From an uncultured Gammaproteobacteria bacterium (lineage in GTDB: Bacteria; Patescibacteriota; Patescibacteriia; UBA11705; JABHMO01): 64,000 nucleotides of DNA. The stretch lies in contig CAYSUN010000001.1 in assembly GCA_964434235.1 (NCBI GenBank), positions 18,574-82,573 of the forward strand. Direction: 5' to 3'. This document shows, piece by piece, positions 289 through 33,770 of the stretch. A program made the translations under genes and the position numbers. Numbering within the stretch: position 1 is the first letter of the stretch; each line of letters starts with the position of its first letter. The notes below the pieces were generated by a model. It saw only the letters and a program-made list of their open reading frames with translations. It was not told the DNA's origin and ran no database searches.

Positions 289-3200
289 ATGCTCAGTCAG
301 TTCAAGAAAATTTTTCATAGCCTTAGTGATAAACTGGGAAAGATATTCCGCTTTGTTAGGTTTTTGATTTGGCCAAAAAATAAGTGGGTCGGTAGGTTGA
401 TGCCTTTTGGTTTTGTGGCTGGTTTGCTTCCATTGACTGTTCATGCTGGTTTGTCTGAATTTCTTCTGTTCTTATTAAATTTCCTTTTATTTAAAATTGC
501 TCAATTGCTGGGTTGGATTGTTATGCAGATATTCGGAGTAGTTTTGATTGTTTCATCTTATAATAATTTTGTTACTCATCCAGCAGTTATCAAAGGTTGG
601 GTCTTGATGCGCGACATGTGTAATTTGTTTTTTGTGATGATTTTGCTTGTTATTGCTTTCATGGTTATTTTGCAAGTTAAAAAGTATGAGCCAACAAAAA
701 TGCTGTACCGAGTAGTGTTAGCTGCAATTTTGGTTAATTTTTCTAAATTGATTTGTGGTATAGTTATAGATTTTGCTCAGGTTGTAATGATGACTTTTGT
801 TAATGGATATGCAGCTTCAGCTGGTGGTAATTTAGTTAATGCTTTAAATTTGGATAGTTTATTATCGCTCAGTACTGATGAAAATATGGACACTGAAGCT
901 GCTTTCCAGATAACAGTAGCCATGATAGCAGCGATTGTTGTTTTAGTGGCGACTATTGTCGTTGTTTTCTTTATTTTAATTTTGTTAACACTTCGAATAA
1001 CTCAATTGTGGATATTAGTAGTTTTATCTCCATTTGCTTTTACTTTGGAAGCAGTACCAGTAGGGGGGTTTCAACAGCAAGCGTCCAAGTGGTTTACTCA
1101 ATTTGGTTGGACAGTAGCAGTTGGTCCGTTTATGGCTTTTTTCCTTTGGCTTAGTTTACTTGTTATGTCTGATCCTGGAGCAATAGTTGGAGACCTGAGT
1201 ACAGCTAGAAAAGTTCAATCAGTTAATAAGGCAAACTTTACTGATACGGGTGGCCATGCAACGGCCACAACAATGGAAGGTCTAACTCAAGCGGCTATTG
1301 GTTTGTCTATGCTTTTTGGTTCATTGATGATTGCTCAGGAAGCTGGAGGTATGATCGGTGATATGGCTTCAAAGGGTGTAGCTTCAACAAAATCAGCTAC
1401 AAAGTGGGCTGCTAATAAAATGACAGGTGGCGTGGCTGAAAAAGGTGGTGCAGCTGTCAAAGGTTATCAAGCAAAACGTAATGAGTTTAAACAATTAAAA
1501 TTGGCTAAATATGGACGAGCAGGAGAAAAAGTTATGGGTCTTCAGGCACAAGCGGGTAGAGTTCCTGGATTTCTTCTTAAAAATGTAGCGAGTGGTATTG
1601 GAGCAGTTGGAAAGGCAATTGATAAAAAGCGAGATGCAGCAAGAACTCCAGAAGAACGAGCAGAAAGAGCTAAAAAGAAAGAAGATAAGGCCAAGAATAA
1701 AAAAAAGAAAAGAGATAACCGAGCTAAACAGATAGACAAATATAAGAATAGCGCTTTCGGCAAAACCATGACAAAAAATTGGCAGAGTACAAATCCTATG
1801 GCTGAGATGTTTGCTAAACGAATTAAAACTGCACACCAAAATACAAAAAATGGTGAAGCAAAAGAATATTTGGCTGGTAAAACATTGGATGAACTAAAAG
1901 AAATTGCTAAAAATACCAGCATGCCTAGTACTATTAGAAATATGGGTGCCTTGGAACTTTCTAGAAAAGGTTATGAGGATGACGGTGATGATGTCGCACC
2001 AAACGAGAGAATGTCTGCTATAGAATATGCTAGAAATGCTCGTAATGATTTAGTTCGGTCTGGTGATAAGGAATCACTAAAAGCGTTTGATGATAATCTT
2101 GAAAAAGGACAGGCTAATATTTTATTCCATATCTCAACTGATGCTGAAAAGACTGCAATGGCTAAAAGGATGCAAAAAGGAGACTTGGAGATGAAAAGCC
2201 AGGGGCCAGAAGCTTTTGGAGATGTTGAGTTTATGGATTTTTATCGTAAAACGGTTGGAAACAAAAAATTTACTTCGACTATAAAAGATGCGTCTGGACG
2301 TGGTGAAGCTTATAGTGATGCAGTTAAAGGCTCCATGCCAAATATGGCTGAGCGTGTACATGTAGATTTAGCTGAACGTGGAAGTGCCGAAGGAATACAA
2401 AGAGAATTTGATTCACGCAAAGCCAAGTTGGATAAACAAATACAAGATGCGGAAATTTTAGGCAAGCCAGATGATGTCGCAAGATTGAAAACTGAAAAAA
2501 ATAAATTAGATCTCAATGGTGTTGGTGCGGAGATTAGAAAACAAATTGAAAAAGATCGAGATGGCTTTCAAAATACTCAAGCTTCAATTACTGGTAGTCT
2601 TGAGGATGCTTTTGGTGATAGAGATAATACAACTGGTAAATTAGATGGAAACATGTCATCTAAGGCGTTAGAAAAAATGGCAAAATATATAAAAAAGTCT
2701 GCAGGAAAAAATTTGGCTAATCTGGGTATTGATAAGTCAGCTGAGAAGGCAGAGAGCGAGGATCCAGATAGTGACAAGAAACCATCTACATCAACTATAG
2801 ATACTTTAGCGGATAACGTGAGCGAAAATCAATTAGTTCAAATGCTTAGGTCTGGTGAGGATGGAGCTGGTGACAAAGTTAATATTCTAGTAAGTAGAAT
2901 GTTGACTAGAGCAGACGATCCGGAAAATTCTAACTTAAAGGCGAGGTTGCAAACAATGTTACAGAAAAATAATGAGATAGTTGGTAGTTTAGATGATGAT
3001 GTCAGAAGGCGGGCGACGGAAAATTTCCCACCGGCCGAACCAAAGGCTGACAAAAAGGACGACAAAGATAATAAAGATCAACAAGGGCAACAAGCTTCAA
3101 GCGGGGACAATGCTCAATCTGGAAGTGGTCAAGATAAACCTCAATCTAAATCTAAACCTAAACCACAGGCTCAATCCCAGGCTGATAGCAGTAGTTATAC

Positions 3201-3438
3201 TTATAAAATTGGTGAGCCAGTTGAAATTAAGGGTGATGATGGCACAGTTCAGAAGTGTGAATATGCTGGGCAAGCAAACACGCAAGGTCATGTAAGAATT
3301 AAACAACAAAATGGCGATGTTATTGAAAGAAAATTAGACACTGTTTTGTTTACTAATAAAGTAATAGCTGAAAACATGAGAAAAGATCGAGATGCATTTA
3401 TGAAAAATAGATCTGGTGGTTATGATACTCAAGCATAA
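289..3438 (+). CDS. polytopic membrane protein, VirB6/TrbL (ConG/TcpH)-like type IV secretion component with a long charged C-terminal extension
   Basis: About 8 hydrophobic helices in the first ~330 aa, followed by a ~700-aa K/E/D/Q-rich hydrophilic tail with a small C-terminal beta domain. This architecture (N-terminal 7-8 TM plus a long C-terminal domain) is typical of Gram-positive VirB6 homologues. It sits in an operon with PrgI-like and VirB4 genes. Confidence 0.5.
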   Translation: MLSQFKKIFHSLSDKLGKIFRFVRFLIWPKNKWVGRLMPFGFVAGLLPLTVHAGLSEFLLFLLNFLLFKIAQLLGWIVMQIFGVVLIVSSYNNFVTHPAVIKGWVLMRDMCNLFFVMILLVIAFMVILQVKKYEPTKMLYRVVLAAILVNFSKLICGIVIDFAQVVMMTFVNGYAASAGGNLVNALNLDSLLSLSTDENMDTEAAFQITVAMIAAIVVLVATIVVVFFILILLTLRITQLWILVVLSPFAFTLEAVPVGGFQQQASKWFTQFGWTVAVGPFMAFFLWLSLLVMSDPGAIVGDLSTARKVQSVNKANFTDTGGHATATTMEGLTQAAIGLSMLFGSLMIAQEAGGMIGDMASKGVASTKSATKWAANKMTGGVAEKGGAAVKGYQAKRNEFKQLKLAKYGRAGEKVMGLQAQAGRVPGFLLKNVASGIGAVGKAIDKKRDAARTPEERAERAKKKEDKAKNKKKKRDNRAKQIDKYKNSAFGKTMTKNWQSTNPMAEMFAKRIKTAHQNTKNGEAKEYLAGKTLDELKEIAKNTSMPSTIRNMGALELSRKGYEDDGDDVAPNERMSAIEYARNARNDLVRSGDKESLKAFDDNLEKGQANILFHISTDAEKTAMAKRMQKGDLEMKSQGPEAFGDVEFMDFYRKTVGNKKFTSTIKDASGRGEAYSDAVKGSMPNMAERVHVDLAERGSAEGIQREFDSRKAKLDKQIQDAEILGKPDDVARLKTEKNKLDLNGVGAEIRKQIEKDRDGFQNTQASITGSLEDAFGDRDNTTGKLDGNMSSKALEKMAKYIKKSAGKNLANLGIDKSAEKAESEDPDSDKKPSTSTIDTLADNVSENQLVQMLRSGEDGAGDKVNILVSRMLTRADDPENSNLKARLQTMLQKNNEIVGSLDDDVRRRATENFPPAEPKADKKDDKDNKDQQGQQASSGDNAQSGSGQDKPQSKSKPKPQAQSQADSSSYTYKIGEPVEIKGDDGTVQKCEYAGQANTQGHVRIKQQNGDVIERKLDTVLFTNKVIAENMRKDRDAFMKNRSGGYDTQA

Positions 3439-3450
3439 TAATTTATTAAA

Positions 3451-5013
3451 ATGACTACAAATAAAAAAACAATTCCAGTACTAAAACAAATAGAACTACC
3501 AGAAAACGTAGCCAATGCTTTGTATAGCGAATTCGGTTATTCTTTAAATAATCAAATTAATAATGAACATGAATTAACTGTTATTCAAAGTTTTTCACTT
3601 GTGAAATTGCAAAATGATTTGTTTTTCAAAAAAGTTGAAGTGTCTGATATTGTACAAGAAATAATTGAGTGTTTGGGTATAAATAAAATCAAGGCAAAAA
3701 AAATTGCTTTAGATGTTTTGGGTAAAAAAATGTTATTACTTGATACTAAGTGGTTTGAGGGCGAAGTAAGTAAAAAAATAACCGAGCTTGGTGGAAATGT
3801 CAAAGATTATAAAGAAATCACTAATAAGTATATTGAAGAGGTTGTCCAAGAAACATTTTATCGTGAATTGTCAGAACAAAAAGAAAAACAAGCTGAAGAG
3901 GCGGAAAAATTAAGTCTTGTGGAAGAGATTGAAGCAGAGGCAGCGGTAGTTAAAGATCCTGAAGGAGAGAAAAAAGCAGCGATCGAAATATTTAGTAATA
4001 AGCTCAAAGATTTGTTGTATGTTAATGATTATGTGTTGAAAATTGAATTAAATATTAGATTGATTACGTTGCTTTTGCAAGAAATGGATGAAGGTGAATT
4101 AAAATCTTTTCATAGCAACTTGTTAAAAGCGATAAAAGAAAATCAAGAATTGATTACTGAACAAAAGATTAATTTAAAAGGCGAATTAGTCGAGCCAACT
4201 GTGGCTAATTGGGTCAAAAATTTTATTCGTGAAGTTGGTTTGGAGGGATCTCAAGTAAACTCATTGAAAAAAGCTAAATATTTAAGTAGCGCTGATAATA
4301 TTCAAGGTTTAAATGAAAACGAGAAAAGAGCAGTTGGTAATTTGTTTTTCCTTTATACTGCCCTAGAAACTTTTTACATTTTGGTGGAAAAATCTGGCAT
4401 TGATGATGTTCTGATACTGCAGTTAACTCCAGAAGAACAACAAGAGTTGAAGCAAGATGTGAAAAAAGCTGAAGAAGAAGATGACAAACAGTCAAAAACA
4501 AAATTAAATGAAGCTGGTGAATCAAAACCTGTGGATATTATGCAGTTGTATTTAGGTAGAGCTGAAGATAGAGAAAAAATCGACACAATTAAACAGCAAT
4601 TATCAATAGATACTCGTCGAGAATACGATAAAGTGGCTGATTACTTGAATGAAAATTTAAAGTCTAGATTTAAATTAAATATTATTGCGGCTATTGAGCT
4701 TTTGGCAGAAATTGGGTCGCTTGATGATTTACTTGCTCACGATGAAAGATATCAAGCGTATATGTACGGATTTTTTAAGCGTAATAATTTACAAGGTGAA
4801 GAAATCGAGTTCAAAAAAAATCCAGTGCAAGCTAAGTACGTTCAATATTTCTTAATGTTTGTATTTATGGAAAGACTTGGAATGAATAATGACAAAGCTG
4901 CTAGATTGGCTGCTAATGTTTCTCAAATATTTATGGCTCAAGGTGTTAGTCAATATGCTCAATTAGCGTACCTTGATTTGAATGATCATCAATTTAAATG
5001 GAGTGATTTATGA
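3451..5013 (+). CDS. hypothetical protein (acidic, coiled-coil-rich) of the T4SS-like operon
   Basis: 520-aa ORF 12 bp downstream of the VirB6-like gene; no motif recognised. Confidence 0.5.
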   Translation: MTTNKKTIPVLKQIELPENVANALYSEFGYSLNNQINNEHELTVIQSFSLVKLQNDLFFKKVEVSDIVQEIIECLGINKIKAKKIALDVLGKKMLLLDTKWFEGEVSKKITELGGNVKDYKEITNKYIEEVVQETFYRELSEQKEKQAEEAEKLSLVEEIEAEAAVVKDPEGEKKAAIEIFSNKLKDLLYVNDYVLKIELNIRLITLLLQEMDEGELKSFHSNLLKAIKENQELITEQKINLKGELVEPTVANWVKNFIREVGLEGSQVNSLKKAKYLSSADNIQGLNENEKRAVGNLFFLYTALETFYILVEKSGIDDVLILQLTPEEQQELKQDVKKAEEEDDKQSKTKLNEAGESKPVDIMQLYLGRAEDREKIDTIKQQLSIDTRREYDKVADYLNENLKSRFKLNIIAAIELLAEIGSLDDLLAHDERYQAYMYGFFKRNNLQGEEIEFKKNPVQAKYVQYFLMFVFMERLGMNNDKAARLAANVSQIFMAQGVSQYAQLAYLDLNDHQFKWSDL

Positions 5014-6230
5014 TATCTAATTTACAAGATGGCTATGTCTTGGTCAAAGATAAGGATGGAGAACTGAAATATTACAAAGAGGGAAAATTCTTCAGTATTG
5101 CAGAAATAGAAAAACAAAGACAAATAGCTTTACAAAAAAATACTAGTCCGAAAGAAAAAGTAGAACTTAAACCTGCTTATAGTTTTGATACTGTTAAACG
5201 TTCGGTTCAAGTTAAACAACCAGATCAAGTGAAGCAATCAGTTCAAGTTAGGCAACTGCCTGAAGATATAAGAAAAGAATTAAGAAAAATTGGTCCAGAA
5301 ATAGAAATCCCTAAATCGCACAAAAAACCTATTTTTCCGAGTAAATTGAAACCCTTGGATCTTGAACCAGAAGAGTTGAAACCGCACAGTGATTTTCATG
5401 AAAGAAGAAATCAAGATCAAGAATTGGTGCAAAAAAAAGTTGACGAAGTGATTGAAAGATTGAAAATTAAATTTAGTGATTCAAGTATAGAAAAAAGATT
5501 TAGAAATATTCTTCTAACTTATTTTCGTGGTATTCGTAAAGACAAAGAATTAGTCTATGTGCTTGGTTTGCCTAAAATAAGTGGTGGCATGGAATTGGAT
5601 GACACGAAGATTAAGATTATTTTGTCAGTTATTAACCAGCATGTGGAAGAATTAGAAAAAGATAGAAGACATTTGGCCAGTAAACCGTTGGCTGATGATA
5701 TTCAAGCGGTTGCTGATATGGAGCATAGATTGGCTCCACCACCACCAGCGATTATTCAAGATAATTCAAAGAATAATCAAGTGGAAAAAAATAGATTTCA
5801 GGCTAGGACTATGCCTAAGCCAGCTATTCAGCGTCCAACGCCAGTTAGTTTGAGTGCTAAAAGACCAGATAGACCGACAATTACAGATATAAAAAGAAGA
5901 CGTTTAATTGGGCCAGTCGAAGAACTTGAAATGATGAATATAGAAAATTTAAGAAGATTGGGAGAGAATGAACATGAAATTATGGAAGAAGTTTTGGAAA
6001 AAATTCAGATTTTAGCAGAGCAATCTTTATTAAAAAAGATTGAAGGTATTAATGCGTGGAAAAGTTCAGCTATCTATAAACTTTATTTGCAAATGACCTA
6101 TGAAGCTATTGTGAATAAGCGAAGTATTGCTGATATTATTGAACAACGGCAATTGAAAAATCAAGAAACTTTAACTTTAAGTGAATATGAAATGTTAGGA
6201 AATATAAATTCTAAATTGAATCTAGCCTAA
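5010..6230 (+). CDS. hypothetical protein with Pro-rich linker, T4SS-like operon
   Basis: ATGA start/stop overlap with the upstream gene (translational coupling); contains PPPPA and repeated VKQSVQV motifs. Confidence 0.5.
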   Translation: MISNLQDGYVLVKDKDGELKYYKEGKFFSIAEIEKQRQIALQKNTSPKEKVELKPAYSFDTVKRSVQVKQPDQVKQSVQVRQLPEDIRKELRKIGPEIEIPKSHKKPIFPSKLKPLDLEPEELKPHSDFHERRNQDQELVQKKVDEVIERLKIKFSDSSIEKRFRNILLTYFRGIRKDKELVYVLGLPKISGGMELDDTKIKIILSVINQHVEELEKDRRHLASKPLADDIQAVADMEHRLAPPPPAIIQDNSKNNQVEKNRFQARTMPKPAIQRPTPVSLSAKRPDRPTITDIKRRRLIGPVEELEMMNIENLRRLGENEHEIMEEVLEKIQILAEQSLLKKIEGINAWKSSAIYKLYLQMTYEAIVNKRSIADIIEQRQLKNQETLTLSEYEMLGNINSKLNLA

Positions 6231-6231
6231 T

Positions 6232-6690
6232 ATGCAACAATTTTTAGTCCCACAATTTATTGACGTTGAAGACAAAATCATCGGTCCTATTACCACAAGA
6301 CAGTTTGTGGAAGTTTTGGCGGGTGTTTTGTTTACTTTTATTTTTTATAAACTTTTAGCTTTTACATATTTTATTTTTGCAGCAATAATTATTTTGCCTT
6401 CAACTGGAATTATTGCTTTTGCAAAAGTTAGTGGACGGCCAATTCATTTTTTCTTGTTAAACTTTTTGCAAACTAGTAAAAGGCCAGCTCTTCGAGTTTG
6501 GAATCGGGCAGCCTATGTTAAGCAAGTTCAAGAAATAAAAAGTGAAATTAAGGAAAAGCCAAAGCCCCAGATTGTTAAAAATGTAATTTCCGGTTCAAGG
6601 TTAAGAGACGTTTCTTTGATTGTTAATACTGGTGGCGTTTATGAGTCGCATGAACCTGTTGTTGATGATAAATTAATGGCTAATAAATAA
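6232..6690 (+). CDS. PrgI/VirB3-like small membrane protein
   Basis: N-terminus FIDVEDKIIGPITTRQFVEVLAGVLF followed by two TM helices resembles the PrgI-family (Gram-positive VirB3) signature; immediately precedes the VirB4 genes, as PrgI precedes PrgJ. Confidence 0.5.
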   Translation: MQQFLVPQFIDVEDKIIGPITTRQFVEVLAGVLFTFIFYKLLAFTYFIFAAIIILPSTGIIAFAKVSGRPIHFFLLNFLQTSKRPALRVWNRAAYVKQVQEIKSEIKEKPKPQIVKNVISGSRLRDVSLIVNTGGVYESHEPVVDDKLMANK

Positions 6691-6724
6691 ATTTATATAA
6701 GTTAACATAAGATTATCAAGAAAT

Positions 6725-7393
6725 ATGGCTACAAAAAGCAGAATAACAACATCAACACAACTTTTTTTGGATATTGCAGAAATAAAAAATAATACTGTAA
6801 TAATGAAAGATGGAACACTTCGAGCAGTTTTAATGGTTTCAAGTGTCAATTTTGCCCTTAAATCTGAAGATGAGCAAGAAGCTTTGGTTTCTTCTTATGT
6901 AACCTTTTTGAATTATTTAGATTTCCCATTACAAATAGTAATTCAATCCAGGAAATTGGATATTGATAACTATTTAAAGAGAATAGAAGTTGCAGAAAAA
7001 GATTTAACTAATGAATTGCTTAAAAAACAAATAGTTGATTATAAAAATTATATTAATGAATTGGTTGAACTTGGTGATATTATGACTAAACATTTTTTTG
7101 TTGTTGTGCCGTACAGTGTTTTGGAAAGCAAGAAAAATGGATTTTTTGATAAAGTAGGTGCAGTTTTCACTCCGGCAAGAGTAATTCGTCTTAAAACTGA
7201 TAAATTTGAAAAATATTTACATGATTTAAATCAAAGAGTTGAGCATGTTTCTTCTAATATTACTTCACTTGGCATTACAGCAGTTCGATTGGATACCCAA
7301 AGTTTAATAGAGCTTTATTATAATGTTTATAATCCTGTTATGGCCAAGAGCCAAAAATTAGTAGATATTGATGAGCTAAGGGTAGAAAGATAA
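6725..7393 (+). CDS. VirB4/TraC-family N-terminal domain, encoded as a separate ORF
   Basis: FLDIAEIKNNTVIMKDGTLRAVLMVSSVNFALKSEDEQEALVSSYVTFLNYLDFPLQIVIQS matches the conserved N-terminal region of CagE/TrbE/VirB4-type ATPases; ends with TAATAA, 33 nt before the ATPase ORF. Confidence 0.5.
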   Translation: MATKSRITTSTQLFLDIAEIKNNTVIMKDGTLRAVLMVSSVNFALKSEDEQEALVSSYVTFLNYLDFPLQIVIQSRKLDIDNYLKRIEVAEKDLTNELLKKQIVDYKNYINELVELGDIMTKHFFVVVPYSVLESKKNGFFDKVGAVFTPARVIRLKTDKFEKYLHDLNQRVEHVSSNITSLGITAVRLDTQSLIELYYNVYNPVMAKSQKLVDIDELRVER

Positions 7394-7426
7394 TAATTTA
7401 TAATTTTAAATCTTGTATAATAAAAT

Positions 7427-9334
7427 ATGTTTAAACCCAATGATGTCAAGAAAAAACCAGTTTCTTCTGAGATACCAATTCCTAAATTAGAAATACTTAA
7501 CGAAACTGCTTCTATTAAAAATGAGGAAGTAAAAGCTTCAAAACAAAAAGAAGTTTTGGAACAAGAAAAAACGTATCGTAAGGGAATAACTTCGGTTTTG
7601 GATATAGTTGCTCCGGCTGCGTTTGAAGTAAATCCTGATCATGTTCGAATTGGCGGACTTTTTGCTAGAACTCTTTTTGTCATGACTTATCCAAGATATA
7701 TTAACGTTGGTTGGTTTTCTCCAGTTATAAACTATAACGCAACTTTGGATATTAGCATGTTTTTTTATCCAATTGAGGCTGGTGTAGTTTTGAAACAATT
7801 AAAAAATAAAGTTGGTATTTTAACAGCCCAGTTAACTTCAGATTCAGAAAAAGGAGCTCCTCGTGATCCACTTAGAGAAACAGCCCTTCAAGATATTGAG
7901 CAACTTCGAGATGATATTACTCAGGGTACTGAAAAGTTTTTTCAATATGCGTTATATGTAACTTTGTATGAAAAAACTATTAGTGAGTTGGATGTTTTAA
8001 CTGAAGACGTTGAAACTGTACTGGGAACAAGGTCAATAATTTCTAAACGGGTATTTTATCAAGCAGAGCAAGGCTTTAATTCAACAATTCCTATTTCTAA
8101 TGATGAATTAATGATAACTGCTAATCTTAATTCTTCCCCAATTGCTGCTTCATTCCCATTTATGTCCTCGGAGCTTACTTCTGATGATGGAGTTTTATTT
8201 GGTATTAATCGACATAATAACAGTTTAATTTTGTTCGATCGATTTTCTTTGCAAAATGCTAATGCCTGTGTGTTCGCTACTTCTGGAGCTGGTAAAAGTT
8301 ATACTATAAAACTGGAAATTTTGCGGAGTATGATGCTTGGAACAGATGTGATTATTATTGATCCAGAAAGAGAATATAAAAATTTGAATGACGCGGTTGG
8401 TGGAACTTATGTAAATATTTCCTTGAATTCTGATAGTAAAATTAATCCTTTTGATTTACCTCGAAAAATGGGTGATATGTCGGCGGCTGATGTTATCCGA
8501 AGTGCAGTCATTACTTTGAAAGGTTTAATGCGAATTATGCTTGGAAAAATGACTTTTCAAGAAGATTCTATTATGGATAGAGCTTTAATTGAAACTTATG
8601 CTAAAAAAGATATTACTGGTGAATCTGATCTAACCACAATCGAACCACCAATTATGCAGGATTTGTATGATGTTCTTGATGGAATGGATGGTGGAGCTGA
8701 TTTAGCTTTACGTTTGAAAAAATATACTTCGGGAACATTTTCTGGTTTATTTAATTCACCGACTAATGTAGACATGGCCAATCAATTAGTTTGTTTTAGT
8801 GTGCGTGACTTGGAAGATGAACTTCGACCAATGGCAATTTATAACATTGTTAATTATATTTGGAATGTAGTTCGATCGGAAGTAAAAAAGAGAATTTTGG
8901 TAATTGATGAAGCTTGGTGGTTATTGCAACATGAAGATTCAGCAAAATTTATTCACGCTTTAGTAAAAAGATGTCGTAAATATTATTTGGGAGTTACAAC
9001 TATTACACAGGATGTAAATGATTTTCTTTTGTCTCAATATGGTCAAGCGATTGTAACAAATTCAGCTTTGAAAATTTTGTTAAAACAAGCTCCTTCAGCT
9101 ATGGATTTGATTCAAAAAACTTTTCAATTAACTGAAGGTGAAAAATATTTACTTTTAGAATGTAATGTTGGTGAAGGAATTTTCTTTGCTGGTAGTCGTC
9201 ATGCTGCGATGAAAGTTGTGGCTTCTCCGCTTGAAGATAGAATGATTACAACTGATCCTCGACAGTTGTTAGCACAGGAAAAACAGAGAGAAGAAGAAGA
9301 GGCTAAGGAAGCTGAAAGAGAAAATACAGTTTGA
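7427..9334 (+). CDS. virB4: VirB4-like type IV secretion ATPase (central and C-terminal ATPase part)
   Basis: Walker A FATSGAGKSYT; Walker B ILVIDEAWWLL (the DEAW motif typical of VirB4/TraC); N-terminal region with the PRYINVGWFSPVIN..LDISMFFYPI motif seen in Gram-positive VirB4 (TcpF/PrgJ-like). Confidence 0.8.
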   Translation: MFKPNDVKKKPVSSEIPIPKLEILNETASIKNEEVKASKQKEVLEQEKTYRKGITSVLDIVAPAAFEVNPDHVRIGGLFARTLFVMTYPRYINVGWFSPVINYNATLDISMFFYPIEAGVVLKQLKNKVGILTAQLTSDSEKGAPRDPLRETALQDIEQLRDDITQGTEKFFQYALYVTLYEKTISELDVLTEDVETVLGTRSIISKRVFYQAEQGFNSTIPISNDELMITANLNSSPIAASFPFMSSELTSDDGVLFGINRHNNSLILFDRFSLQNANACVFATSGAGKSYTIKLEILRSMMLGTDVIIIDPEREYKNLNDAVGGTYVNISLNSDSKINPFDLPRKMGDMSAADVIRSAVITLKGLMRIMLGKMTFQEDSIMDRALIETYAKKDITGESDLTTIEPPIMQDLYDVLDGMDGGADLALRLKKYTSGTFSGLFNSPTNVDMANQLVCFSVRDLEDELRPMAIYNIVNYIWNVVRSEVKKRILVIDEAWWLLQHEDSAKFIHALVKRCRKYYLGVTTITQDVNDFLLSQYGQAIVTNSALKILLKQAPSAMDLIQKTFQLTEGEKYLLLECNVGEGIFFAGSRHAAMKVVASPLEDRMITTDPRQLLAQEKQREEEEAKEAERENTV

Positions 9335-9344
9335 AAACAAAAAA

Positions 9345-9982
9345 ACACTTAATCACTAAAACAAGAAATCAATAAAACATAAAAACAAGAAAACAAGGAA
9401 AAGAAAGATTCAAGTAACAAGCAAAACAGAACACGGAACACAAAACACGGAACATTAATCATAGAACATAGATCATAGAACAAACACTTAAGATGGTTTA
9501 GCACTGCCAACTCTTACCGCATCCCTTTAGGGTGCGTAGAACTTAAAACAAGGTTAAAAAGGCAGTAAAACCACTCCCTACCTGTCTATCGGTTTACATG
9601 CCGGAGGTATGCAGGCAGGCGTAATAAACACTTAAGCTGGTTTATTGCTTACTGTTTAACATTTAATGTTTAATATTTATTTACTTAATACTTAATCATA
9701 GAACATAGAATATAGATCATAGAGCATCAAATCAATAAATCATTTAAACACTTAATCACTAAAACAAGAAGTCAAGGAAAAGAAAGATCCAAGTAACAAG
9801 AAAAATTTAATACTTACTACCTGCCTGCCGGTTTACGTGCCGGAGGTGTGCAGGCAGGCTTAACACTTACTTTTTACTTTTAACTTTTAATTTTTAACTT
9901 TTTCAATTTACTGTTTATTTACTTAACACTTAATACTTAACACTTAACACTTACTTTTAACTTTTAACTTGTAACTTTTAAT
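9345..9982. repeat. tandem intergenic repeat block: two copies of a ~55-80 bp unit, each followed by a GC-rich hairpin, plus ACTTAA/CTTTTAA-type micro-repeats
   Basis: Unit ACACTTAATCACTAAAACAAGAA..GGAAAAGAAAGATYCAAGTAACAAG at 9345-9421 and 9748-9800; hairpin CCTGCCTGCCGGTTTACRTGCCGGAGGTRTGCAGGCAGG at ~9577-9619 and 9830-9858. Confidence 0.8.
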
Positions 9983-10561
9983 ATGGAACAAAGAAAAAAA
10001 ATTATATTAATCATTGTCGTTGGTGTTTTGATTATAGCGGGAATTATAACTTGGTTTGTAATTTCTGAAAAAAAAGCTAATTCAACATCAACGGAAACTG
10101 ATACTGTTGCTACTCTTTCGGGTAAACCAGTTGATGAAAAAAAAGCAATTGTGGCAGTAGCACCAACTCAAAAAGAAAAAGTGGAAGTTTCAGTTAAATC
10201 AGTTGTTACAACTTTTGTTGAGAGATTTGGAAGTTTTTCCAATCATGCTAATTTCTTTTCAGTCGAAGATATTGTACCAATGATGACAAGTTCTATGGCT
10301 AGTTGGGTACAAAATACTTATTTGCCAACATTAAGAAGAGAGTATGATCCACAAGGTTTTTATTATAGTGTACAAACAACTGCTCCTGTTGTGAGAATTT
10401 TGAAAGAAGAAGGTAATTATATGGAGATAATGGTAGAAACCCAAAGAGTTGAAGATAGAGAAGGACAAAAACAAAATTTTAATCAAGCTATTAAAATAGA
10501 TTTAGTTAAAAGTGGTGAGGAGTGGCTAGTTGATGGAGCATTTTGGCAAAAACAAGAATAA
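9983..10561 (+). CDS. hypothetical membrane-anchored protein
   Basis: N-terminal TM helix (ILIIVVGVLIIAGIITWFVI) followed by a soluble domain. Confidence 0.5.
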   Translation: MEQRKKIILIIVVGVLIIAGIITWFVISEKKANSTSTETDTVATLSGKPVDEKKAIVAVAPTQKEKVEVSVKSVVTTFVERFGSFSNHANFFSVEDIVPMMTSSMASWVQNTYLPTLRREYDPQGFYYSVQTTAPVVRILKEEGNYMEIMVETQRVEDREGQKQNFNQAIKIDLVKSGEEWLVDGAFWQKQE

Positions 10562-11258
10562 ACTAAAACGGCTATTCGAAAAAGTACTCAGTTATATTTT
10601 CCCAATTGAGTGTGTTAGCTGTCAAAAAGAGGGGGAGTATATTTGCTCCGCCTGTTTTGCTCAAATAAAACTGATTGAAAACTTTAGTTGTTTTATATGC
10701 AATCAAGGATCATTTGCCAAAGGTATTTGTCCCAAGTGTGAAGAAACCACTAGCATAGATCAAATAATTGTGGCTACAACTTATCAAGATAATATTGTTG
10801 GTAAGCTGGTTGAACAATTTAAGTACAATTATTTAGAAGATACCAAATATCTACTTAGTCGAGTCTTGATAAAACAAATTGAACAGAAAGAATTAACTAA
10901 TGTTTTGCGTAATAAAGTTTTAGTACCAGTGCCTTTGCACAAAAAAAGATTAGCGGAAAGAGGGTTTAATCAAGCGGAAGAATTAGCTAAATTATTAGCA
11001 GTTAAGTTTGATTCTCAGGTTAATACTACAATTGTGAGGAGAGTTGCTAACACAAAACAACAAGCAAAATTGAACAGAAAACAACGTTTGCAAAATCTTA
11101 TAAATGCTTTTAGAATAGATAGTGAAGGCAGTTGGCCTGAAGAAGTAATTCTCATAGACGATGTTTTAACTACGGGTACAACATTTACTGAGTTATGTAA
11201 ATGTCTTAAGAAAAATGGTGTTAAAAAAGTTGTTTGTATTGCTATTTGTCATGGATAA
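10530..11258 (+). CDS. comFC: ComF-family protein (phosphoribosyltransferase-type, ComFC-like)
   Basis: N-terminal Cys cluster (CVSCQKEGEYICSAC, CFICN, CPKCE) and C-terminal PRTase motif VILIDDVLTTGTT; true start may be an internal Met because the ORF overlaps the upstream gene. Confidence 0.7.
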   Translation: MMEHFGKNKNKLKRLFEKVLSYIFPIECVSCQKEGEYICSACFAQIKLIENFSCFICNQGSFAKGICPKCEETTSIDQIIVATTYQDNIVGKLVEQFKYNYLEDTKYLLSRVLIKQIEQKELTNVLRNKVLVPVPLHKKRLAERGFNQAEELAKLLAVKFDSQVNTTIVRRVANTKQQAKLNRKQRLQNLINAFRIDSEGSWPEEVILIDDVLTTGTTFTELCKCLKKNGVKKVVCIAICHG

Positions 11259-31418: not shown

Positions 31419-33770
31419 CTATTTTGCAATATAACCTTTGTTGGTTTTGTACCAGTTAGATGTTCCAGCTCCACACTGTTTTAAATCTACAACGCCAGTA
31501 ATTGCTTCAGATGGGGTAAGTGCTTTTTCACACGTTCCACCAGGTGTGAATGTTCCCTTCAGATTTACGCAGGTTTCAGGACTTGTTTTTATGCCGTTTT
31601 CGGGATTTGTCAATCCTAGGGAATAAGCAATTAAATCGCTTTTGCAACAACCAGATTCGCCTGCATCTAAATTATCTTCGGGGAAAAACACAATGTTTGC
31701 AACTGTTCCTGATCCTCCGCCATGGACACATTGATTTGTTGATCCTGCATTTGATGAAATTGGATTTAAGTTTTCGATGGTGCCATTTCCATTACTAACA
31801 CATTTACTCATTAAATCATTTTGCTTATATGTGTCTTTGTTGGCTTTAGGACAACCTGTTGCAGCACATTCTGATGACCAGCCTGTGTTTGATTCAACTA
31901 TTTTTCCTTCGCCTAGTGAAATAAATACATGTTGAAGTGTGCCACCGTTACATCGGAACATTGCTCCGGCCGGAAGTAGACTTGGATATTTTGATGCAGC
32001 CCCACCACCAACAATAAGAGCTTTCCATCTTAAGTCAGTTAGTTGAGGTCCTAAGGCTCCAATACAAGTAGCGCCTGGTAGTTTGCAACCAGAGTTTTTT
32101 AAAATTCTTGAAGATATTTTAGCACAACTATTTGGCGCTGTGAGGAAGTCTTTTGCATTAGCCCAAGCAGTACCAACATTTTTTATGTCAGTTGAAGTGC
32201 ATTTCAAAAGTGAATTGTAGCAACCTGTACCACTATTGAATTTAGAGTAATCTGGAAATTTGGATGCATCCGCTTCTGGACATTCCCCAGTTGAAGGATC
32301 AAAGTTGGGTGGGTTGTAAGCGCTATCATCTGCCGTTGTTAAATTAGCTGCTATTCCATATTCACCTGGTTTATAAAAATAGGTAGAATCTGCTATTCCG
32401 CAATCATCCCAGATGTCTTGAGCAGAGGCTGTTTTTAGACCTCGGTGAACTGGATCATTTATACCATATACTCCTCCAGAATAACTGGTTAAAACTATGT
32501 AATGACCATTTTTAGTGAATTTGCACTTTGGATGATCTCTTCCAATTGACCTAATTATAACTGGAATTCCTTTTGAAAGTAATTCAATAAGTTTTGGGTC
32601 ATCTTTTGGTCTGTTCCAAACAGATTCTGATTTTAGTCCGTTTGCAGTAGCCAATTCTGCCATCCCTTTGTCATCAAAACCACAACAAGTCTGAGCTTTG
32701 CTTCCAGAAACAGAGCCAGCTGGTGCGCGGATGCCATTTAGCTGTATCCATTTAGCAACGTCAGGTGGAGTAACACTAATTCCATAATAGTTCAAAACCA
32801 TTGCAGATGAAGTTAGTCCACAGCCAGAAGATTGAATCACGTTAGTGTTGGGAGTGCCACCAGTGCTATTTGTCATTTTTGAATTTTTACAAAATTCTAC
32901 AAAATTATTTGCGCCCCATGGGTTTTTACTACACCACGCTGAATCTTTGACATTTGGATTGTTACAAAGTTCAGAAACTTTGTAAGTCTTTTCTAGCCAT
33001 TCACAGTAATTTACATCAGTTTTAGGATATTTGTCATTTTTAAATTTACAAGAAAAAATACCAAATTGAGGTGGGTTAGAAATGCCTGGCATTTCCATTT
33101 TGTAACCCGCAGTACCACAGGCGACCGCATATTTACCTAGGCCAGGAACTTCAACCTTACCATTTTGATAACTGCAATTATTGCCAGTTAGAGGATAACA
33201 TGCCCATTGTATGTCAGTCTGAGCATAGTAAACAACTTTTCCTGTGCCAGTTGGGGTGTTTGTTACTGGAGTATTTGCAAATTCACTTTCATTGATTACT
33301 CCATCTGAGACAGATTCAATTAGCGTTGTTTTTAGATTTACTAGATTGGGGTTTATTGTATTCAAAATAATGTTTGTGCACATGAGAATAACCAGACCGA
33401 TTAAAGCACCAGATATCATTGATTTAGCTTTTTGTATTCCTGATGGATTTGCGCCTGCCAGAACATATAATAATCCACCAATCATCAAAATCAGTGTAGC
33501 CACGATTCCTCCAAAAATTATTCCATAGTTATAAATTGCAACTAAATAATCAACGATCCAATTGGTTACATATGTTTGACCAGGAGTGAATTTAATGCTA
33601 TCCCAGGCATCTAGACCAGGAATTTCTACACGAACTTTCGGAGCTGGTAGTTCAACTTCTTCCTGCACTTTTTGACTGTATGTGAGATGAAGAGGTATTA
33701 AAATGAAAACAAAAATAATAATTGTTGAAAGAATGATTTTTTTATAATATTTTTTTTTTGTTTTTGTCAT
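31419..33770 (-). CDS. large Cys-rich secreted protein with peptidase-C39-like (papain-fold) domain; shares N-terminal two-helix module with 30004-31377
   Basis: SSGCGLTSSAMVLNYYG resembles the C39/C39_2 catalytic-Cys motif; the N-terminal ~110 aa are paralogous to the downstream gene. Confidence 0.5.
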   Translation of the reverse strand: MTKTKKKYYKKIILSTIIIFVFILIPLHLTYSQKVQEEVELPAPKVRVEIPGLDAWDSIKFTPGQTYVTNWIVDYLVAIYNYGIIFGGIVATLILMIGGLLYVLAGANPSGIQKAKSMISGALIGLVILMCTNIILNTINPNLVNLKTTLIESVSDGVINESEFANTPVTNTPTGTGKVVYYAQTDIQWACYPLTGNNCSYQNGKVEVPGLGKYAVACGTAGYKMEMPGISNPPQFGIFSCKFKNDKYPKTDVNYCEWLEKTYKVSELCNNPNVKDSAWCSKNPWGANNFVEFCKNSKMTNSTGGTPNTNVIQSSGCGLTSSAMVLNYYGISVTPPDVAKWIQLNGIRAPAGSVSGSKAQTCCGFDDKGMAELATANGLKSESVWNRPKDDPKLIELLSKGIPVIIRSIGRDHPKCKFTKNGHYIVLTSYSGGVYGINDPVHRGLKTASAQDIWDDCGIADSTYFYKPGEYGIAANLTTADDSAYNPPNFDPSTGECPEADASKFPDYSKFNSGTGCYNSLLKCTSTDIKNVGTAWANAKDFLTAPNSCAKISSRILKNSGCKLPGATCIGALGPQLTDLRWKALIVGGGAASKYPSLLPAGAMFRCNGGTLQHVFISLGEGKIVESNTGWSSECAATGCPKANKDTYKQNDLMSKCVSNGNGTIENLNPISSNAGSTNQCVHGGGSGTVANIVFFPEDNLDAGESGCCKSDLIAYSLGLTNPENGIKTSPETCVNLKGTFTPGGTCEKALTPSEAITGVVDLKQCGAGTSNWYKTNKGYIAK

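Follow-up and report, generated by a model that had tools for sequence, protein, structure and literature searches.

The locus described here raises the question of whether a VirB4 ATPase encoded by two consecutive genes is a genuine two-chain protein, a single gene broken by a recent nonsense or frameshift mutation, or an artifact of sequencing. These three readings were put forward in a preliminary description of the window (the whole stretch of 64,000 nucleotides that was analysed), which reported two open reading frames, ORF1 and ORF2, with characteristic peptide motifs and a combined length of 857 aa. The frames, their positions (on the plus strand) and the motifs were all confirmed, and the features of the region are as follows:

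ORF1: 6725..7393, plus strand; 222 aa, free-standing TrsD-like module with homology to the N-terminal domain of VirB4 (first half)
Intergenic spacer: 7394..7426, plus strand; 33 nt, AT-rich, with 3 further in-frame TAA codons
ORF2: 7427..9334, plus strand; 635 aa, VirB4 chain without the first ~130-170 residues of single-chain VirB4
Walker A (GAGKS): 8285..8299, plus strand; ORF2 residues 287-291
Walker B region (ILVIDEAW): 8894..8917, plus strand; ORF2 residues 490-497

ORF2 matches the NCBIfam NF045971 CD1110 VirB4-like model with 358 bits (E 1e-106), above the cut-off of 325; the TIGR00929, TraC and VirB4_plasma models also match but stay under their own cut-offs, and Pfam matches are to P-loop_TraG (E 1.5e-29), AAA_10 and DUF87. 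Residues 250-608 match the VirB4 C-terminal domain of PDB 4AG5 (E 3.9e-49), and residues 279-575 align to TrwK 446-735. An FtsK/HerA-type P-loop ATPase domain with both Walker motifs, as expected of VirB4, is present. The preliminary label of "ATPase" fits residues ~250-608 but leaves out that residues ~57-250 make up the N-terminal domain of VirB4 in its second half, preceded by a K/E-rich, poorly conserved tail (residues 1-56). A complete N-terminal domain is not found on this one polypeptide: the CD1110 alignment pairs ORF2 44-590 with profile positions 175-729 of 752, and so begins at position 175. Its best 120 homologues are of similar size, 577-692 aa.

By sequence comparison, the segment absent from ORF2 is encoded separately, in ORF1. 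That ORF1 resembles the VirB4 N-terminus had been proposed from its letters alone, and the proposal is borne out by profile, BLASTP and hhalign matches. ORF1 aligns with positions 101-281 of 894 in NCBIfam VirB4_plasma (E 5.6e-11), with CD1110 profile positions 20-94, and by hhalign with a fused DPANN protein at a probability of 99%. Sequence and profile searches of the PDB returned no VirB4 match for ORF1, and only fold comparison gave one, of moderate quality (TMq ~0.5) and from a model that is partly of low confidence. In a local Pfam hmmscan the sole match was PF11130 TraC_F_IV (15.6 bits, cut-off 28.1); PF26593, "TraC-like", is pre-annotated in databases on ORF1 and on all of its best 120 homologues, but our own hmmscan did not return it. 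Against the TrsD/TraD family model NF041427 the score was 24.6 bits (E 1.9e-5), below the cut-off of 200, and an ORF1 profile aligned with TrsD of Staphylococcus plasmid pGO1 at an hhalign probability of 79% (E 1.6e-5). These scores identify ORF1 as a remote TrsD/TraD homologue that does not reach the curated threshold for membership. Its layout is nevertheless that of a TrsD-type gene, encoding a soluble protein of ~200-230 aa, with no transmembrane segment detected; a VirB3-like gene lies on one side and, on the other, the gene of a VirB4-like ATPase (~620-670 aa) that is short at its N-terminus. Homologues of ORF1 number 7256, plus 2360 cluster representatives; stand-alone forms of ~225 aa occur in the thousands, and lengths range from 132 to 478 aa among the best matches listed.

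When aligned to single-chain relatives, ORF1 and ORF2 cover successive parts of them. On the 754-aa protein of Carboxydocella pCCELLA01, ORF1 covers residues 1-~165 (BLASTP E 6e-14) and ORF2 37-614 covers residues 165-747 (E 5e-77). On 976-aa PrgI-VirB4 fusions of DPANN archaea, ORF1 4-129 falls on 78-200 and ORF2 52-631 on 229-810, and the NCBIfam profile coordinates of the two ORFs are likewise complementary. In the fused proteins only a few residues join the two parts, and the stop, spacer and new start of the window stand where single-chain proteins have a short loop. As to the preliminary question of whether the junction maps to a natural interdomain linker, the break coincides with this loop and lies within the N-terminal domain, not between that domain and the ATPase. 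The break is bordered by an ~18-aa C-terminal tail on ORF1 and the ~56-aa N-terminal tail on ORF2.

Whether relatives are fused or split was asked of 45 patescibacterial loci, whose ORF1 homologues are 37-71% identical to ORF1, and all 45 are split, the ATPase gene coming after a stop codon in each. Gaps have a median of 5 nt (range -35 to +192 nt), with 35 of the 45 at 12 nt or less and 7 pairs overlapping; relative frames 0, 1 and 2 are found in 14, 11 and 20 loci, and TAA, TAG and TGA all serve as stops. Beyond this group, the break is at the same position in TrsD/TrsE of pGO1 and in gene pairs of C. perfringens, Miltoncostaea and Halobellus. A break position common to pGO1 and to other monoderm and haloarchaeal plasmid systems points to an old, selectively maintained gene architecture.

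The genes on either side of the pair are conserved in synteny with it, and some of them resemble T4SS components:

orfA: 289-3438, plus strand; 1049 aa, polytopic N-terminus, candidate VirB6-like protein (synteny, hydrophobicity)
orfB: 3451-5013, plus strand; 520 aa (synteny)
orfC: 5010-6230, plus strand; 406 aa (synteny)
PrgI-family gene: 6232..6690, plus strand; 152 aa, VirB3-like small membrane protein, directly 5' of ORF1
orfD: 9983..10561, plus strand; 192 aa, bitopic VirB8-like protein (fold and synteny)

The PrgI-family protein scores 29.5 bits against Pfam PrgI (E 1.1e-6, cut-off 27), has a single strong hydrophobic segment at residues 37-55 and keeps its syntenic position in 46 of the 50 related loci. 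No Pfam match was found for orfD, but its AF2 model (pLDDT 83) shows a transmembrane helix at the N-terminus, followed by a disordered linker and an NTF2-like domain, and its top Foldseek matches are the PrgL VirB8 domain (7aed, E 2.1e-5), CagV, IcmL-like proteins, DotI, chain 8rtd_Y of the R388 stalk-arches-IMC structure and pIP501 TraH. It is thus VirB8-like in its predicted fold, and it is syntenic in 26 related loci. Neither Pfam nor NCBIfam matches were obtained for orfA, orfB or orfC, which tblastn placed in 23, 18 and 38 of the 50 loci, respectively; among the three, hydrophobic segments are confined to orfA residues 45-293, and it is this hydrophobicity that makes orfA a candidate VirB6-like protein. 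A VirB3-like protein (by Pfam) and a VirB8-like protein (by fold) are accordingly encoded alongside ORF2, as for other VirB4 family members. The cluster is bordered by ComF-like and MurG genes, with RecG, RadA-like, LigA and GatA-like genes farther off, and no T4CP or relaxase domain was detected among the 19 larger ORFs of the window that were scanned. A virB4 gene with TrsD and PrgI neighbours in such a housekeeping chromosomal context, with neither relaxase nor T4CP in those 19 ORFs, is what characterizes the chromosomal T4SS of Patescibacteria (MPF-FATA-related clade). The spacing, together with the lack of a terminator-like site between ORF1 and ORF2, suggests that the cluster is probably co-transcribed, and in most relatives the ORF1/ORF2 pair is probably coupled in translation.

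Closely comparable systems are already known. Quinonero-Coronel et al. (2025) described TrsD as remotely homologous to the N-terminal portion of VirB4 and as usually adjoining virB4 across Patescibacteria; their HMM search of Patescibacteria found TrsD homologues more often than any other T4SS component, with 1664 of 2272 associated with virB4 (PMC12102498). From these pairs the window locus differs in no substantive way and is one more instance: it falls in the same phylum-level clade, is chromosomal, has the order PrgI - TrsD-like - VirB4, and encodes proteins 50-88% identical to many listed homologues. The pGO1 subclass of MPF-FATA has the same order, with VirB3-like TrsC of 135 aa, TrsD of 227 aa and TrsE (DUF87) of 672 aa, compared with 152, 222 and 635 aa in the window. 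TrsE matches ORF2 at E 5e-49 with colinear N-termini and the junction at the same alignment position, whereas TrsD and ORF1 are related only remotely in sequence (the 24.6 bits given above). As a conjugative plasmid, pGO1 also encodes a relaxase, a T4CP and further functions for conjugation, whereas the window cluster is chromosomal and neither a relaxase nor a T4CP was found in the scanned ORFs. Single-chain VirB4 proteins (R388 TrwK, the CD1110 family and the pCCELLA01 protein) share domain content and order, ATPase motifs, and VirB3-like and VirB8-like partners with the window pair, but are one polypeptide rather than two. The DPANN VirB3-VirB4 fusions (loci L048 and L050) also carry an ORF1-like followed by an ORF2-like segment, but show the opposite trend, with PrgI, N-module and ATPase all fused and an extra C-terminal domain of ~165 aa; no PrgI-VirB4 fusion of this kind occurs in the window.

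The explanation that best accounts for these observations, and that we consider likely when taken as a whole, is that the window, from a Falkowbacteria-like patescibacterium, carries a conserved chromosomal T4SS locus in which two genes encode a real and functional VirB4 motor. The operon-like run proceeds from the VirB3-like PrgI gene through ORF1 and ORF2 to the VirB8-like gene. ORF1, which is TrsD-like and matches the N-terminal domain of VirB4 in its first half, and ORF2, which contains the second half and the FtsK/HerA-type P-loop ATPase, would associate non-covalently and so rebuild a VirB4-like protomer. In the R388 structure it is through their N-terminal domains that VirB4 subunits contact each other as dimers and attach to VirB3 and VirB8 (PMC12857230); ORF1 may offer the surface for N-terminal-domain dimerisation and for membrane docking to VirB3 and VirB8, as in single-chain VirB4, while ATP hydrolysis by ORF2 would power assembly or transport.

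An alternative that we regard as unlikely, although it fares best among the competitors, holds that ORF1 is an independent TrsD-family accessory protein (an adaptor, regulator or chaperone-like factor) that has both ancestry and fold in common with the VirB4 N-terminus without rebuilding a protomer, and that ORF2 is a naturally N-terminally shortened VirB4. Consistent with this, no TrsD/TraD protein has an experimentally assigned function, and TrsD homologues of Gracilibacteria do not adjoin virB4 (PMC12102498); ORF1 homologues, moreover, bear variable P/Q-rich extensions at the N- or C-terminus, and some are 280-478 aa long. Against this reading, the two ORFs together cover fused relatives with neither overlap nor gap, ORF2 lacking exactly the segment that ORF1 contains; the genes are in tight, often overlapping adjacency in all 45 loci; and the two parts are linked by only a few residues in the fused proteins. 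The N-terminal extensions of the longer homologues were also considered as possible VirB3 fusions; they are of P/Q-rich low complexity, with neither a transmembrane segment nor a PrgI match, and this candidate was rejected.

A more far-reaching proposal, which we hold to be rather improbable, is that the two-gene form constitutes an ancient class of VirB4 with a function of its own, forming a single deep clade or even preserving the ancestral state before fusion, in which the free N-module would be a docking adaptor, exchangeable or under regulation, that links VirB3/VirB8 to the ATPase ring. This proposal is built on the identical break position across systems of Patescibacteria, Bacillota, Actinomycetota and haloarchaea. 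If true, it would allow control of assembly, or stoichiometries, that are impossible for single-chain VirB4.

A functional two-gene motor is also the reading that the junction itself favors. The two ORFs share one reading frame, and the junction sequence is TAA TAA TTT ATA ATT TTA AAT CTT GTA TAA TAA AAT ATG, with four in-frame stops. Three further assemblies, made from ENA and JGI samples, contain the exact ORF1 protein, and in the two of these metagenome assemblies that reach past the junction the DNA there is identical. Of the three readings offered at the outset, the genuine two-chain VirB4 is the one supported, by the split in all 45 relatives and by this identity between independent assemblies. 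The other two are refuted and are given almost no weight. Recent pseudogenisation, by a nonsense mutation or small indel in a single-chain virB4, is suggested by the common frame and the distance of only 33 nt, but it does not accord with four stops, with a universal split in which gaps, frames and stop codons differ, with 31 invariant columns across an alignment of 75 ORF1 homologues, with the thousands of stand-alone homologues, or with the listing of the Southlakia homologue as essential (PMC12102498). A sequencing or assembly error that interrupted an intact ORF with a spurious stop has the same-frame arrangement and nothing more in its favor, against both the independent assemblies and the universal split. 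Hardly more credible is programmed read-through, frameshifting or bypassing that would yield a single 860-aa chain: the common frame in this genome would permit it, but read-through would be needed at four stops, no structured element was detected at the junction, where Rfam likewise placed no RNA element within or nearby, and the ATPase gene lies in +1 or +2 in 31 of the 45 loci; with frames and gaps so varied, no common recoding signal is possible.

Other details of the spacer given in the preliminary description stand in part. The "TAATAA plus 33 nt" is correct as to both the TAATAA and the 33-nt spacer, but counts slightly double, the second TAA being already inside the spacer. The reported TATAAT-like box is indeed present, as two TATAAT hexamers, but is unremarkable, the hexamer having a frequency of about one per kb on each strand of the window, whose GC content is ~32%. 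Promoter-like sites between 6100 and 10100 number 13, compared with 17.2 +/- 3.9 in shuffled sequences, and with TATAAT this common and such sites unenriched nothing can be concluded about an internal promoter. A Shine-Dalgarno sequence is not evident in the spacer.

The two-gene VirB4 is no new kind of system. It is conserved as the norm in Patescibacteria, and also in some plasmids of Gram-positive bacteria and archaea, and has already been published as TrsD plus VirB4 (PMC12102498); on an explicit "split VirB4" or on TrsD function, our literature search turned up no more than the remark that the homology is remote, and no assigned function. What the alignments add here is the exact tiling of fused relatives, the placement of the break inside the N-terminal domain, and the identity of its position with that in plasmid systems. 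The importance is mainly for annotation: for the 222-aa gene the labels "hypothetical", virB4 fragment and pseudogene should all be avoided, and it would be wrong to regard the 635-aa gene as a truncated VirB4. For epibiotic growth the patescibacterial T4SS has been reported to be essential, and in Southlakia epibionticum the essentiality of homologous genes, the TrsD homologue among them, has been reported (PMC12102498). A two-chain motor broken in the middle of its N-terminal domain offers a handle for structural and genetic work on docking of the ATPase to VirB3 and VirB8, and the same-position break in pGO1-type TrsD/TrsE hints at the function of the TrsD/TraD family, including, by family name, TraD of pIP501. 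At the level of gene arrangement, a plasmid of B. thuringiensis Bt407 likewise has the order PrgI - small protein - DUF87 ATPase.

ORF1 and ORF2 between them contain a whole VirB4 in the right order. Both ORFs, with the peptide motifs quoted for them in the preliminary description, are present on the + strand and share one reading frame:

6725-7393, + strand: ORF1, gene of a 222-aa TrsD-like protein
7427-9334, + strand: ORF2, gene of a 635-aa predicted VirB4-type ATPase
ORF2 residues 287-291: Walker A motif, GAGKS
ORF2 residues 490-497: Walker B motif, ILVIDEAW

Judged by its sequence, ORF2 is unambiguously a VirB4-type ATPase. It matches P-loop_TraG (1.5e-29), AAA_10 and DUF87 of Pfam and, in NCBIfam, the CD1110 family of VirB4-like conjugal transfer ATPases (E 1e-106; 358 bits against a curated cut-off of 325), and its residues 250-608 match the VirB4 C-terminal domain of PDB 4AG5 (E 3.9e-49). 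The start of a normal VirB4 is missing from it, as the match coordinates show: its residue 44 aligns with position 175 of 752 in the NCBIfam CD1110 profile, its residue 83 with position 245 of TIGR00929, and its residue 279 with residue 446 of TrwK.

The missing segment is supplied by ORF1. Its matches to NCBIfam VirB4_plasma (positions 101-281 of 894, E 5.6e-11) and to the CD1110 profile (positions 20-94) bear out its earlier description as a homologue of the VirB4 N-terminus. Plain sequence and profile searches of ORF1 against the PDB gave no matches. Foldseek comparison of an AlphaFold2 model (alignment of 75 homologues; pLDDT 75) with the PDB returned R388 TrwK/VirB4 chains as all of the top 14 matches (probability ~1.0, TMq 0.35-0.51, ~170-240 aligned columns), the next matches having probability < 0.35.

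Single-chain relatives of two kinds show how the parts fit together. Residues 1-~165 of a 754-aa protein encoded on the Carboxydocella thermautotrophica plasmid pCCELLA01 align to ORF1 (E 6e-14), and its residues 165-747 align to ORF2 37-614 (E 5e-77). A 976-aa DPANN archaeal protein, found on two contigs of MAGs labelled Woesearchaeota and Nanoarchaeota (loci L048, 5770-8697, and L050, 5659-8586), comprises a PrgI/VirB3-like segment (Pfam PrgI 4-84), an ORF1-like part (78-200), an ORF2-like part (229-810) and an extra C-terminal domain of ~165 aa. The joint is short in both kinds; a few residues lie between the ORF1 helix "...LIELYYNVYNP" and the counterpart of ORF2 "VLDIVAPAAFE...". An alignment to full-length homologues had been proposed as a check on whether the junction is a natural interdomain linker. 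The break lies instead inside the VirB4 N-terminal domain, not at the linker to the ATPase, since the ATPase domain starts only at about ORF2 residue 250. Flanking the break are a C-terminal tail of ~18 residues in ORF1 and an N-terminal tail of ~56 residues in ORF2, the latter K/E-rich and poorly conserved in relatives. ORF1 also matches the stand-alone TrsD/TraD family of NCBIfam (E 1.9e-5). The main rival explanation, that ORF1 encodes an independent TrsD-type accessory factor, is improbable.

Both genes are strongly conserved and almost always tightly juxtaposed. Three further assemblies, from two ENA samples and one JGI sample, encode an identical ORF1 protein, and the 131 nt of junction DNA are identical to the window in the two whose contigs reach far enough. 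A scan with one genome per species gave 50 related loci, 47 of them running past ORF1; in 45 of 45 loci of patescibacterial type the genes are split, the ORF1 stop being followed directly by the ATPase gene. With each start set heuristically at the open frame's first ATG, the gaps range from -35 to +192 nt (median 5 nt; <=12 nt in 35/45 loci; seven overlapping pairs). The ATPase gene stands in relative frame 0 in 14 loci, frame 1 in 11 and frame 2 in 20, and all three stop codons (TAA, TAG, TGA) occur at the end of ORF1. A word-indexed search found 7256 ORF1 homologues, the best 120 all of 220-264 aa, and an exhaustive search through 1.84 billion cluster representatives gave 2360 hits (991 at E <= 1e-10), the best 150 all of 132-478 aa; the best 120 ORF2 homologues have 577-692 aa. 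Over 75 homologues, 31 columns of ORF1 are invariant.

From this pattern it follows that error, recent nonsense mutation and common recoding are excluded. A common read-through or frameshift mechanism is ruled out by the varying gaps and frames. Of the three readings first offered, recent pseudogenisation is refuted by the split in 45/45 loci, the stand-alone homologues and the invariant columns; sequencing error fails on the identical junction DNA of independent assemblies and the same 45 loci; and a genuine two-chain VirB4 is supported.

Some stand-alone ORF1 homologues bear P/Q-rich, low-complexity N-terminal extensions of 60-220 aa that lack a transmembrane segment, and others (280-440 aa) bear C-terminal extensions; P0122, P0137, P0196, P0246, P0259 and P0270 are homologues with one or the other.

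The DNA between the ORFs reads TAA TAA TTT ATA ATT TTA AAT CTT GTA TAA TAA AAT ATG, with four in-frame stops within 36 nt, and no terminator-like hairpin was found between them. The "TATAAT-like box" pointed out in this spacer carries no weight, because TATAAT occurs ~1 per kb per strand in the window (GC ~32%, GC skew steadily positive) and promoter-like sites from 6100 to 10100 are not enriched (13, versus 17.2 +/- 3.9 in shuffled sequence).

The same architecture is found outside Patescibacteria. A tblastn search of plasmids with ORF1 matched 401 records, mostly Bacillus. In C. perfringens pJFP838A and in Miltoncostaea, Halobellus and B. thuringiensis Bt407 plasmids the match is a separate gene of 312-549 aa, with a PrgI-family gene on one side (3/4) and a 623-661-aa DUF87 ATPase gene on the other. 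Staphylococcus pGO1 has trsC (135 aa), trsD (227 aa) and trsE (672 aa); the alignment of ORF2 with TrsE starts at ORF2 35 / TrsE 6 (E 5e-49), and the ORF1 profile is colinear with TrsD (hhalign probability 79%, E 1.6e-5). A joint alignment of five split pairs (window, pGO1, C. perfringens, Miltoncostaea, Halobellus) and the fused DPANN protein puts the break of every pair at one common position, near DPANN residue 235 and just upstream of a conserved "VAPxxFE...G...YPxxVxxGW" block.

In the secretion machine of R388, the two VirB4 protomers of a dimer are held together by their N-terminal domains, and these domains also make contact with VirB3 and VirB8 (PMC12857230). For the two-chain VirB4, ORF1 and ORF2 would be co-transcribed and often translationally coupled, and their products may reassemble non-covalently into a VirB4-like protomer. 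By analogy with R388, ORF1 would provide part of the docking/dimerisation surface, beside PrgI and the VirB8-like proteins of adjoining genes, and ORF2 would provide ATP hydrolysis.

The two-gene arrangement is already known, given a published survey, existing family models and separate NCBI genes. Quinonero-Coronel et al. (2025) searched 3,035 patescibacterial genomes and reported 2,272 TrsD homologues, 1,664 of them virB4-associated; elsewhere TrsD was confined to the pGO1 subclass of MPF-FATA, and the homologue of Southlakia epibionticum is listed as essential (PMC12102498). NCBIfam has a TrsD/TraD model, ORF1 homologues are tagged Pfam PF26593 "TraC-like" in public databases, and the ORF1 and ORF2 proteins are already in NCBI as separate genes. 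The additions made here are modest: the precise tiling of the two genes on fused relatives, the finding that the break falls inside the N-terminal domain and at an identical position across phyla, and a VirB8-like neighbour identified by fold.

Related loci share the syntenic run orfA - orfB - orfC - PrgI - ORF1 - ORF2 - orfD - comF, and among the 50 loci PrgI is a neighbour in 46, orfC in 38, and orfD and comF in 26 each. Features of the window discussed below are:

289-3438, + strand: orfA, 1049 aa, ~6-8 hydrophobic segments within the first 300 residues, the large remainder hydrophilic
about 9578-9621 and 9818-9860: two copies of the hairpin CCTGCCTGCCGGTTTACGTGCCGGAGGTGTGCAGGCAGG
9983-10561, + strand: orfD, 192 aa, "hypothetical", VirB8-like bitopic by fold
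10530-11258, + strand: ComF-like gene, double zinc ribbon and PRTase, 3' of the T4SS cluster
31419-33770, - strand: gene of a 782-aa protein, amid unassigned minus-strand genes ~22 kb from the virB4 cluster

Pfam and NCBIfam searches gave no family for orfD, which has just 10 detectable sequence homologues yet is syntenic in 26 related loci. Its model (pLDDT 83) has a transmembrane helix and an NTF2-like domain, with VirB8-like best PDB matches (PrgL, CagV, IcmL-like, DotI, 8rtd_Y of the R388 stalk-arches-IMC structure, and pIP501 TraH), and the predicted fold identifies it as a VirB8-like bitopic protein. For orfA, syntenic in 23 related loci, the same two databases gave no match; its N-terminus is polytopic, and it is a candidate for an "extended VirB6-like" protein. 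A scan of 19 window ORFs found neither T4CP nor relaxase domains. Flanking housekeeping genes are ComF-like, MurG, RecG, RadA-like, LigA and GatA-like; the adjacency of the competence gene comF to the T4SS is conserved in the window and in 26 of the related loci (among L001-L046).

Downstream of the ATPase gene lies an ORF-free gap of 650 nt (9335-9982), with a composite repeat whose two copies, ~240 nt apart, include the GC-rich hairpin. These are its only copies in the window, none being expected by chance, and an Rfam search of the region gave no match. Many related MAG records that bear the title "uncultured Gammaproteobacteria bacterium" or "Deinococcaceae bacterium" (L008, L010, L012, L013, L015, L047 and others) carry the patescibacterial-type syntenic cluster, and their taxonomic labels are probably placeholders or the result of mis-binning. 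The 782-aa protein has a T4SS_pilin (VirB2-like) match at 81-138 (E 1.1e-5; 25.9 bits, just below the 26.6 cut-off) and a Peptidase_C39-like domain at 312-439.
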